Below, piece by piece: positions 30,874 to 31,026 of a DNA stretch of 64,000 nt. The DNA is from Gammaproteobacteria bacterium (GTDB lineage Bacteria; Pseudomonadota; Gammaproteobacteria; Eutrophobiales; Eutrophobiaceae). The notes below the pieces were generated by a model that had not been told where the DNA came from, did not search any database, and saw only the letters and a program-made list of their open reading frames with translations. The position numbers were made by a program, and so were the translations under genes. The stretch's first letter is position 1, and each line of letters starts with the position of its first letter. The stretch spans positions 1,088,001 to 1,152,000 of the forward strand of contig OZ220696.1 in NCBI GenBank assembly GCA_965116495.1, read 5' to 3'.

Positions 30874-31026
30874 ATCCGCAGATGACGCAGATTACCGCAG
30901 ATAAAAATATAAAAGATCAGGAGACTTACAAAATTCTTGGGGCGGCAATGGCTGTACATAGAGAACTGGGACATGGTTTTCTTGAGACTTGTTTTTAATC
31001 TGCGTTAATCTGCGTCATCTGCGGAT
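30874..31026. repeat. CGCAGAT-family inverted repeat, copy 5 (encloses GxxExxY remnant)
   Basis: 29-bp arms 30874-30902 and 30998-31026 with one mismatch. Confidence 0.9.
30882..30998 (+). pseudogene. Internally deleted GxxExxY (PD-(D/E)XK-like) protein, 38 aa
   Basis: Hand translation MTQITADKNIKDQETYKILGAAMAVHRELGHGFLETCF*; matches the GxxExxY N-terminal pattern TY.I.GAAM.VH.ELG.GFLE. Confidence 0.8.

Follow-up and report, generated by a model that had tools for sequence, protein, structure and literature searches.

Between a gene for an OppC-like oligopeptide ABC permease (29970..30857, + strand; best NCBIfam matches below the cut-offs in a profile search) and one for a FabI-like enoyl-ACP reductase (31105..31890, + strand; best matches likewise below the cut-offs), the window, by which we mean the whole 64,000-nucleotide stretch of gammaproteobacterial DNA analyzed here, carries a 153-base stretch (30874-31026) in which two 29-bp inverted arms enclose a 38-codon GxxExxY fragment. 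The CGCAGAT word appears three times per arm, with spacings of 9 and 10 bp, and in the arm alignment the right arm (30998..31026, − strand) is an inverted copy of the left one (30874..30902, + strand), the two being complementary at 28 of 29 positions. The window contains the word 30 times, whereas 9.8 occurrences were expected and the largest count in 100 shuffles was 17. Site comparison places further units just outside the arms, namely, a worn one on the left (30857..30866, + strand), also present in genome G016 and in a better copy in G001, and an additional near-palindromic 10-base unit on the right (31032..31041, + strand); G022 retains just one such unit at this site.

The ORF (30882..30998, + strand) begins with an ATG at 30882, inside the left arm, and ends with a TAA at 30996-30998 that abuts the right arm, as an earlier note made from the sequence alone had described; it translates as MTQITADKNIKDQETYKILGAAMAVHRELGHGFLETCF*. 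That note had also recognized the N-terminal pattern of GxxExxY proteins in the peptide, and the profile search agrees, with PF13366 matched above its cut-off (E 1.1e-4, 23 bits against 22) and TIGR04256 below it (E 1.7e-5, 25.2 bits against 35). The ORF covers GxxExxY (PF13366) residues 1-35, followed by three out-of-frame codons and the stop: the terminal TCF* is the gene's 3' tail read out of frame, its in-frame reading being RLVFNLR. At 38 aa, the peptide stops short of the Y of GxxExxY and represents an incomplete member of the family, without Y38, D75, E85, and K87.

The window belongs to genome G000 (4.34 Mb, one contig), in which a profile search found no full GxxExxY gene; PF13366 matches were obtained in 9 of 22 congeners. 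In one of these, G001, the gene is intact (132 aa), has the same arms, and lies between the same oppC-like and fabI-like neighbors, so that arms and gene form one unit, as proposed in the earlier note. This intact unit of 425 bp holds a single PF13366 ORF, hence no DDE or HUH gene; its product (P0002) scores 141 bits against the TIGR04256 cut-off of 35, and its GxxExxY motif consists of G32, E35, and Y38. By allele alignment, the window copy lacks 272 bp relative to G001: within the 367-base interior, the deletion joins position 82 directly to position 355, with 2 bases common to both sides (junction at 30984..30986, + strand), and leaves the final 13 bases of the gene interior (30985..30997, + strand), 12 of them identical to the intact allele. 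The catalytic core is gone, as the missing bases encode D75, E85, K87, and Q99xxxY103. A different deletion affects the gene of G016 at the same site. Contigs of two studies (X2 and X5) cross the cassette without any difference, which rules out misassembly as the origin of the short allele; contigs X7 and X8 align to the first part of the cassette and continue from there, which suggests longer alleles in the relatives behind them. The window copy is thus a dead remnant that arose by internal deletion from a 425-bp cassette, namely, a GxxExxY gene with 29-bp inverted arms.

The contents of the oppC-fabI site vary. Among the 20 genomes with both flanks, as classed by eye, 3 hold the gene or a piece of it, 2 have these arms with an unrelated interior, 5 show one unit or the remnant of a lone arm, another 5 carry different repeat classes, and the last 5 have something else or nothing; G007 has no fabI on its contig and lies outside this comparison. 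G008 carries here an interior family that occupies 3 sites. In the tree of the flanking genes, G016 and G022 are sisters, G000 comes next, and G001 is distant, so that the one-unit state of G022 represents a loss.

Arms, words, and gene-less units

The arms are not a peculiarity of this site. An inverted repeat scoring at least 12 brackets 103 of 136 GxxExxY loci, whereas controls drawn from those loci are bracketed in 3 of 129 cases (L095, identical to L014, was dropped beforehand, and L118, which repeats L010, is counted twice), bearing out the expectation that full-length genes would be flanked by such arms. The arm word varies by protein subfamily. Among the 79 loci found with peptides of the present subfamily, which stem from many phyla according to the record titles, 59 have a CGCAGAT-type word on both sides, 20 are uncalled, and 0 have another word. 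On a protein tree of 54 rows (from which rows that had no label, were short, or contained a stop were left out, as were two thirds of the subfamily set), the four arm-word groups need 6 changes compared to 24 in shuffles, and G001 and G007 each harbor two subfamilies with different arms. Because relatives carry the same labels and the gene is linked to its arms, this pattern shows joint travel rather than recognition; linkage by itself would make the arm word track the protein clade.

Both full arms are present in 51 of 83 elements, and in these the two arms mismatch at 6% of word positions and at 48% of spacer positions, a contrast inflated by the selection of arms with a word pattern, and the mismatches carry no G-U bias (26 versus 19). 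Left-right spacer agreement inside cassettes is modestly above shuffles and is absent in G022. Because words and their spacing are kept while continuous pairing is not, protein-binding sites on DNA fit better than an RNA stem, and we infer that the words, not continuous pairing, are the conserved feature. We regard as quite unlikely an RNA-level element resembling an rRNA intervening sequence, whose arms would pair in the operon transcript so that RNase III excises the loop or the stem controls translation, with the protein acting on RNA. This explanation draws on a predicted stem of −78 kcal/mol (z −7.9) in which the start codon is buried, on the lack of a sigma-70-like promoter within 700 bases upstream of the intact gene, on the mostly shared direction of gene and upstream neighbor (63 '+' versus 14 '-' where called, 105 loci, crude rule), and on a precedent in the available part of PMC4990558, where 23S rRNA intervening sequences appear as ∼430-nt units with a small ORF within the stem, lateral acquisition, and ORF decay. 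The ORF described there encodes a four-helix bundle, whereas the present units occupy mRNA intergenic sites in many copies and combine an imperfect stem with a predicted nuclease fold. Besides the spacer mismatches and the missing G-U bias, 4 of 32 cassettes lie between divergent genes, Rfam gave no match at the gathering score (one chance hit, E 2.3), and an RNA role alone accounts for neither DNA movement nor inversion.

A weight matrix finds 79 arms in G000 and none in the shuffled control at that score; they form 32 arm pairs, 27 of which lie between called ORFs. Paired arms are better kept than single ones (median 52 versus 45 bits; 58 versus 21 arms, p 1.4e-4), with a pairing rule that itself favors good arms. 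Exact arm counts span 0 to 110 across 23 genomes. Among 300 genomes of the class, in which two arm types were searched, the gene is present in 9 of 19 with at least 3 arms compared to 29 of 281 others. The remaining 10 arm-rich genomes have no gene at E 1e-20, with no trace in 4 of the 5 that were searched again, and no GxxExxY gene was found in several congeners with 40-80 arms. Nor did these arms enclose any other gene in the 20 stretches examined, which come from 8 genomes that carry them. Among 50,697 phage records the cassette had no match, and among 72,556 plasmid records it matched 8, with no vehicle found in either set.

Five further arm pairs occur elsewhere in the window, and the earlier note had derived all of them from erosion of the gene. 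By pairwise comparison this holds for the pair at 20753..20919 (− strand), whose 109-base interior includes the gene's 3' end (49 of 73 identical, z 9.9) and which is an older decayed copy, and, as a borderline match, for the 101-base interior at 6040..6189. It fails for the 22-base interior at 444..523 and for the pair at 33185..33332, neither of which matches the gene; the latter has perfect arms, and its site is armless in G016 and G022. The fifth pair (11050..11230) is worn: a small hairpin insert interrupts its left arm, its right arm is partial, and other repeats are nested within the pair. Across three genomes, 12 of 81 interiors (some of them orthologous copies) match the gene beyond all 60 shuffles, and the same test gives no link for the other 69; a broad DNA profile of 83 genes picks up only 5 of the 81, fewer than pairwise comparison with congeners. 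In 15 remnants, the ends of the gene are covered in 8-10 and the middle in 0-3, a pattern of preserved ends that hairpin slippage would likewise produce. Interiors have a median length of 89 bases, and the arms are near perfect although the interiors have drifted by 25-35%. In another family, G250 holds a 27-residue 5' remnant between arms, a state like that of the window copy. Taken together, the alignments indicate that erosion of the gene to gene-less cassettes is real and repeated and accounts for one, perhaps two, of the window's five empty pairs; other empties are interior families located at unrelated sites. Interiors as captured pieces of the genome were considered and set aside, as a search of the own genome matched only other cassettes and nested repeats.

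The hairpin insert at 11050-11105 has counterparts. Five arms in all are split between words two and three by an insert of 27-54 bases, the others being at G000:C1:4276431, 3403560, 1381295, and 80950, and the insert seems to be a small element that targets the arm.

A predicted nuclease and other packaged genes

The AlphaFold2 model of the protein, built from 8 sequences, reaches a pLDDT of 88.8. Its nearest solved folds are Cas4 SSO0001 (Foldseek E 1e-4, TM 0.60) and BpuSI, both at a VIA Z of 7.7, a value under 8 by which the model is placed in the PD-(D/E)XK fold and no one family is singled out. E35, D75, E85, K87, Q99, and Y103 are conserved in 129-130 of 131 proteins, so that the modeled intact protein, a predicted nuclease, presents the PD-(D/E)XK core together with the D...ExK residues. 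With a dN/dS of 0.10-0.11 in four pairs, the protein appears to be under purifying selection with an intact PD-(D/E)XK site. Cas4 proteins have four conserved cysteines and a cas context. The model resembles Cas4/RecB-type nucleases (SSO0001 and 4ic1) in its nearest fold and in the E, D, ExK, and QxxxY motifs; the present protein differs in its 132 aa, in the absence of a CRISPR context, and in having no conserved cysteine cluster, with no cysteine among the columns conserved at 85% or more in the 131 proteins. A sequence search of solved structures returned only T7 endonuclease I at a nonsignificant E of 0.99, and PADLOC matched no defence model, its sole hit being Cas4a2 at E 0.018. In the accessible part of PMC3424549, PF13366 is listed as of unknown function with multiple lateral transfers, and the part of 10.1101/2021.01.26.428298 that we could consult mentions a GxxExxY domain mistaken for cas4 by another tool.

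Three other genes of G000, coding for a four-helix bundle, a tyrosine transposase, and a GIY-YIG protein, are each enclosed in inverted arms of their own, and each unit also has gene-less copies. With the GxxExxY gene, this makes four unrelated small-gene families in arms of their own, which indicates that the packaging is generic. It also lends weight to a passive role of the gene, in which inverted arms would make any small gene tolerable between the genes of an operon, the units would be moved and reshaped by recombination in the host, by slippage, and by exchange of alleles, and the nuclease would be kept for another job such as defence, repair, or addiction, without acting on the arms. 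Repeat classes do replace one another at the same sites, as in the 5 of 20 genomes at oppC-fabI, half of the arm-rich genomes have no gene, and the scars are compatible with deletion between near-palindromic 10-mers. Left unexplained by such cargo would be the retention of words and 9/10-bp spacing while spacers mismatch, the near-perfect arms around drifted interiors, and the lack of a defence model match. Overall, we consider passive cargo a rather doubtful account, at roughly one chance in four.

The other packaged families deserve description in their own right. A PF05635 four-helix-bundle gene lies outside the window between inverted arrays of a 7-base repeat (G000:C1:1532840-1533148); the same arrays recur without the gene 57 times in the genome, including 16392-16548 and 28809-29031 of the window, and the PF05635 unit may be the parent of these heptamer hairpins. 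The four-helix-bundle family is not known to include an enzyme. The Y1 tyrosine transposase gene (G000:C1:403640-403963) sits in GGGGTC-type inverted repeats in a TIRtron layout, and repeats of this type also occupy the oppC-fabI site in G002, G014, and G019. The small GIY-YIG gene has its own inverted repeat arrays (G000:C1:3675118-3675339), to which ∼137 hairpins in the genome are related, five of them in the window (4557, 7072, 11155, 11176, and 23755).

Probable movement of the cassette and its possible cause

At oppC-fabI, the cassettes of G001 and of G016 or G000 are 0.96-0.97 identical, whereas twelve 100-base windows of the flanks range from 0.75 to 0.92 (∼84%). Synonymous codon differences amount to 6 of 66 in the cassette gene compared to 76 of 224 in fabI (Fisher p 4e-5), and GxxExxY copies at other sites differ at 25-33% of synonymous codons, so the gene is not slow in itself. 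A cassette that is 96% identical within flanks of ∼84% has likely moved laterally, and the transfer was likely confined to the cassette at this one site. Ordinary allele exchange by homologous recombination could produce the same jump in identity, and the pattern at oppC-fabI, a single site, would also fit transfer into an allelic site with short co-conversion. Intact or decayed genes sit at several other sites within the genus, so that, given also the varying contents of oppC-fabI, synteny is not stable. At one further site, the intact gene of G011 stands opposite an unrelated 91-base interior in G000 with the same left junction.

The comparison of empty and filled sites called for in the earlier note was run between species and revealed presence and absence at many sites (36 cassettes of G016 and 19 of G022 within the stretches examined, and 24 of G000). 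Some empty sites have shrunk to one or two units, and the others contain what the cassette replaced, either host sequence or a different repeat class; filler amounts to 5-50 bases, and host bases are missing from the junctions that were inspected. No target duplication was seen by eye in the pairs inspected, between species that are 3-15% apart and whose fresh junctions may be blurred. The 35 comparisons of two filled sites gave the same interior in 25, an inverted one in 2 (one weak, both among the 13 G000-G016 pairs), and one unrelated by the test in 8, among them 2 short homologues and 1 that contains an IS. A clear inversion of the interior, with identical flanks, separates the sisters G016 and G022. 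One interior family occupies 7 sites at 70-88% identity, and a second occupies 3; a search of G000, G016, and G022 for near-identical gene-less copies at unrelated sites found none (best 88%) and gives no sign of recent bursts.

Three more specific ideas did not hold up. A clean swap of interiors between G000 and G016 or G022 is matched equally well by replacement of whole units, because the outer filler differs too in the unrelated pairs. Other repeat classes often fill the empty site, but targeting of resident hairpins was dropped, with an inverted repeat of at least 9 in 5 of 13 arm-free sites compared to 2.8 expected. Solo 10-base units as excision footprints gave a weak signal (23 of 54 intergenic compared to 10-33% for six control words).

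Several single sites add detail. At L210:17436-17578 in G016, and also in G022, the cassette seems to replace a gene's 3' end plus a different hairpin repeat found in G000, G014, and G015. An AT-rich ORF at G000:C1:1106313-1107156 occupies the site of a GxxExxY cassette in G005, G001, and G011, the orientation in G005 being opposite to that in G001 and G011. Two gene-less cassettes of G142 (L324:358 and 4349), 4 kb apart, are ∼98% identical in opposite orientation, each inside a pair of another arm type. In G000, cassettes at C1:1384444 and 1387790 share related interiors and a common left flank, which looks like a local duplication, and the neighboring cassettes at C1:2469580 and 2470619 also have related interiors. 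In G016, a 14-15 base unit is present in 3-5 tandem copies at the right arm's outer end at L205:9502-9720 and L218:12378-12582.

IS elements with MITEs combine terminal inverted repeats, internal-deletion derivatives, a DDE transposase, and target duplication. Terminal inverted repeats and internally deleted derivatives are present here too, and an ordinary MITE/IS system moved in trans by some other transposase, with the GxxExxY gene as a passenger, would account for the sharp outer boundary of the arms, the better state of paired arms, and the interior families at unrelated sites. Yet no DDE transposase is present in the unit, no target duplication was seen, and the inspected junctions are imprecise, with host bases lost; the PF01797 (Y1) genes of G000 lie elsewhere, with other arms or none, and the 20 stretches from arm-bearing genomes held no other gene between these arms. 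Such a system thus appears very improbable, at about one chance in ten.

We put at about even chances the proposal that the cassette is a selfish element whose nuclease binds its own words and cuts, upon which host repair copies the cassette into the break. The predicted nuclease would bind the 7-base words of the arms on double-stranded DNA and cut in or beside them, and gene conversion by the host, with the arms or short flanks as homology, would fill the break with the cassette. Conversion would be homing-like at an allelic or already armed site and imprecise at new sites, and broken-off repair could be the source of deletions such as that of the window copy. Gene-less miniatures would serve as both passengers and landing sites, and the gene would enter a lineage, raise its number of arms, and decay afterwards. 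More tentatively, and somewhat below even chances, we envisage a minimal element free of any transposase or recombinase, in which a 130-aa Cas4/RecB-like nuclease would read helically spaced words, one word per subfamily, and repair would swap interiors between armed sites with miniatures as landing pads; it would be one of several families, alongside the four-helix-bundle, GIY-YIG, and TIR tyrosine transposase units, that compete for sites.

Freestanding homing endonuclease genes are lone nuclease genes whose product cuts the empty allele and spares the filled one, with gene-limited transfer into the allelic site and a cycle of invasion and decay. The cassette resembles them in its lone, here predicted, nuclease gene and would resemble them in gene-limited transfer and in a cycle of invasion and decay; it differs in occupying many different sites and in its inverted arms and gene-less derivatives. 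REPIN/RAYT systems, REPtrons, and TIRtrons, as described in the accessible parts of PMC3116915, PMC5581495, and PMC3733652, share with it a single-copy gene in inverted repeats, many gene-less intergenic doublets, a better state of doublets than of singlets, and a repeat type that matches the enzyme type. The enzymes described there are HUH (Y1) tyrosine transposases, in contrast to the PF13366 gene with its predicted PD-(D/E)XK fold flanked here. RAYTs are portrayed in the same excerpts as mostly vertically inherited, whereas the present cassette sits at several sites in one genus with a jump in identity at oppC-fabI; moreover, unlike in the REPIN/RAYT descriptions, the gene lies inside the doublet and decays into it, and the arms consist of three spaced words. 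Restriction-modification genes in transposon-like inverted repeats, as far as the available text of PMC2853133 goes, are also nuclease genes within repeats (26-65 bp) that enclose no transposase. They differ in carrying methyltransferase functions, in having target duplications of 8 bp, and, for the case described, in repeats that occur only in the unit, whereas the cassette here has a single 132-aa gene, no duplication, and dozens of gene-less copies. A description of these arms was not found in the literature by family name, accession, or arm sequence, in a search of mostly open-access papers. By these comparisons, the GxxExxY cassette is apparently an undescribed mobile unit, set apart by the absence of an HUH or DDE enzyme and, in the pairs inspected, of target duplication.

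PF13366/TIGR04256 is a widespread family, and its subfamily-specific arms supply a named candidate substrate. If the gene is cargo only, the unit reduces to a variant of the TIRtron layout. If, on the other hand, the enzyme drives the unit, this would be a mobile element without any transposase, the source of uncatalogued intergenic hairpin repeats would be explained, and very small sequence-reading nucleases, with one word per subfamily, would be on offer.
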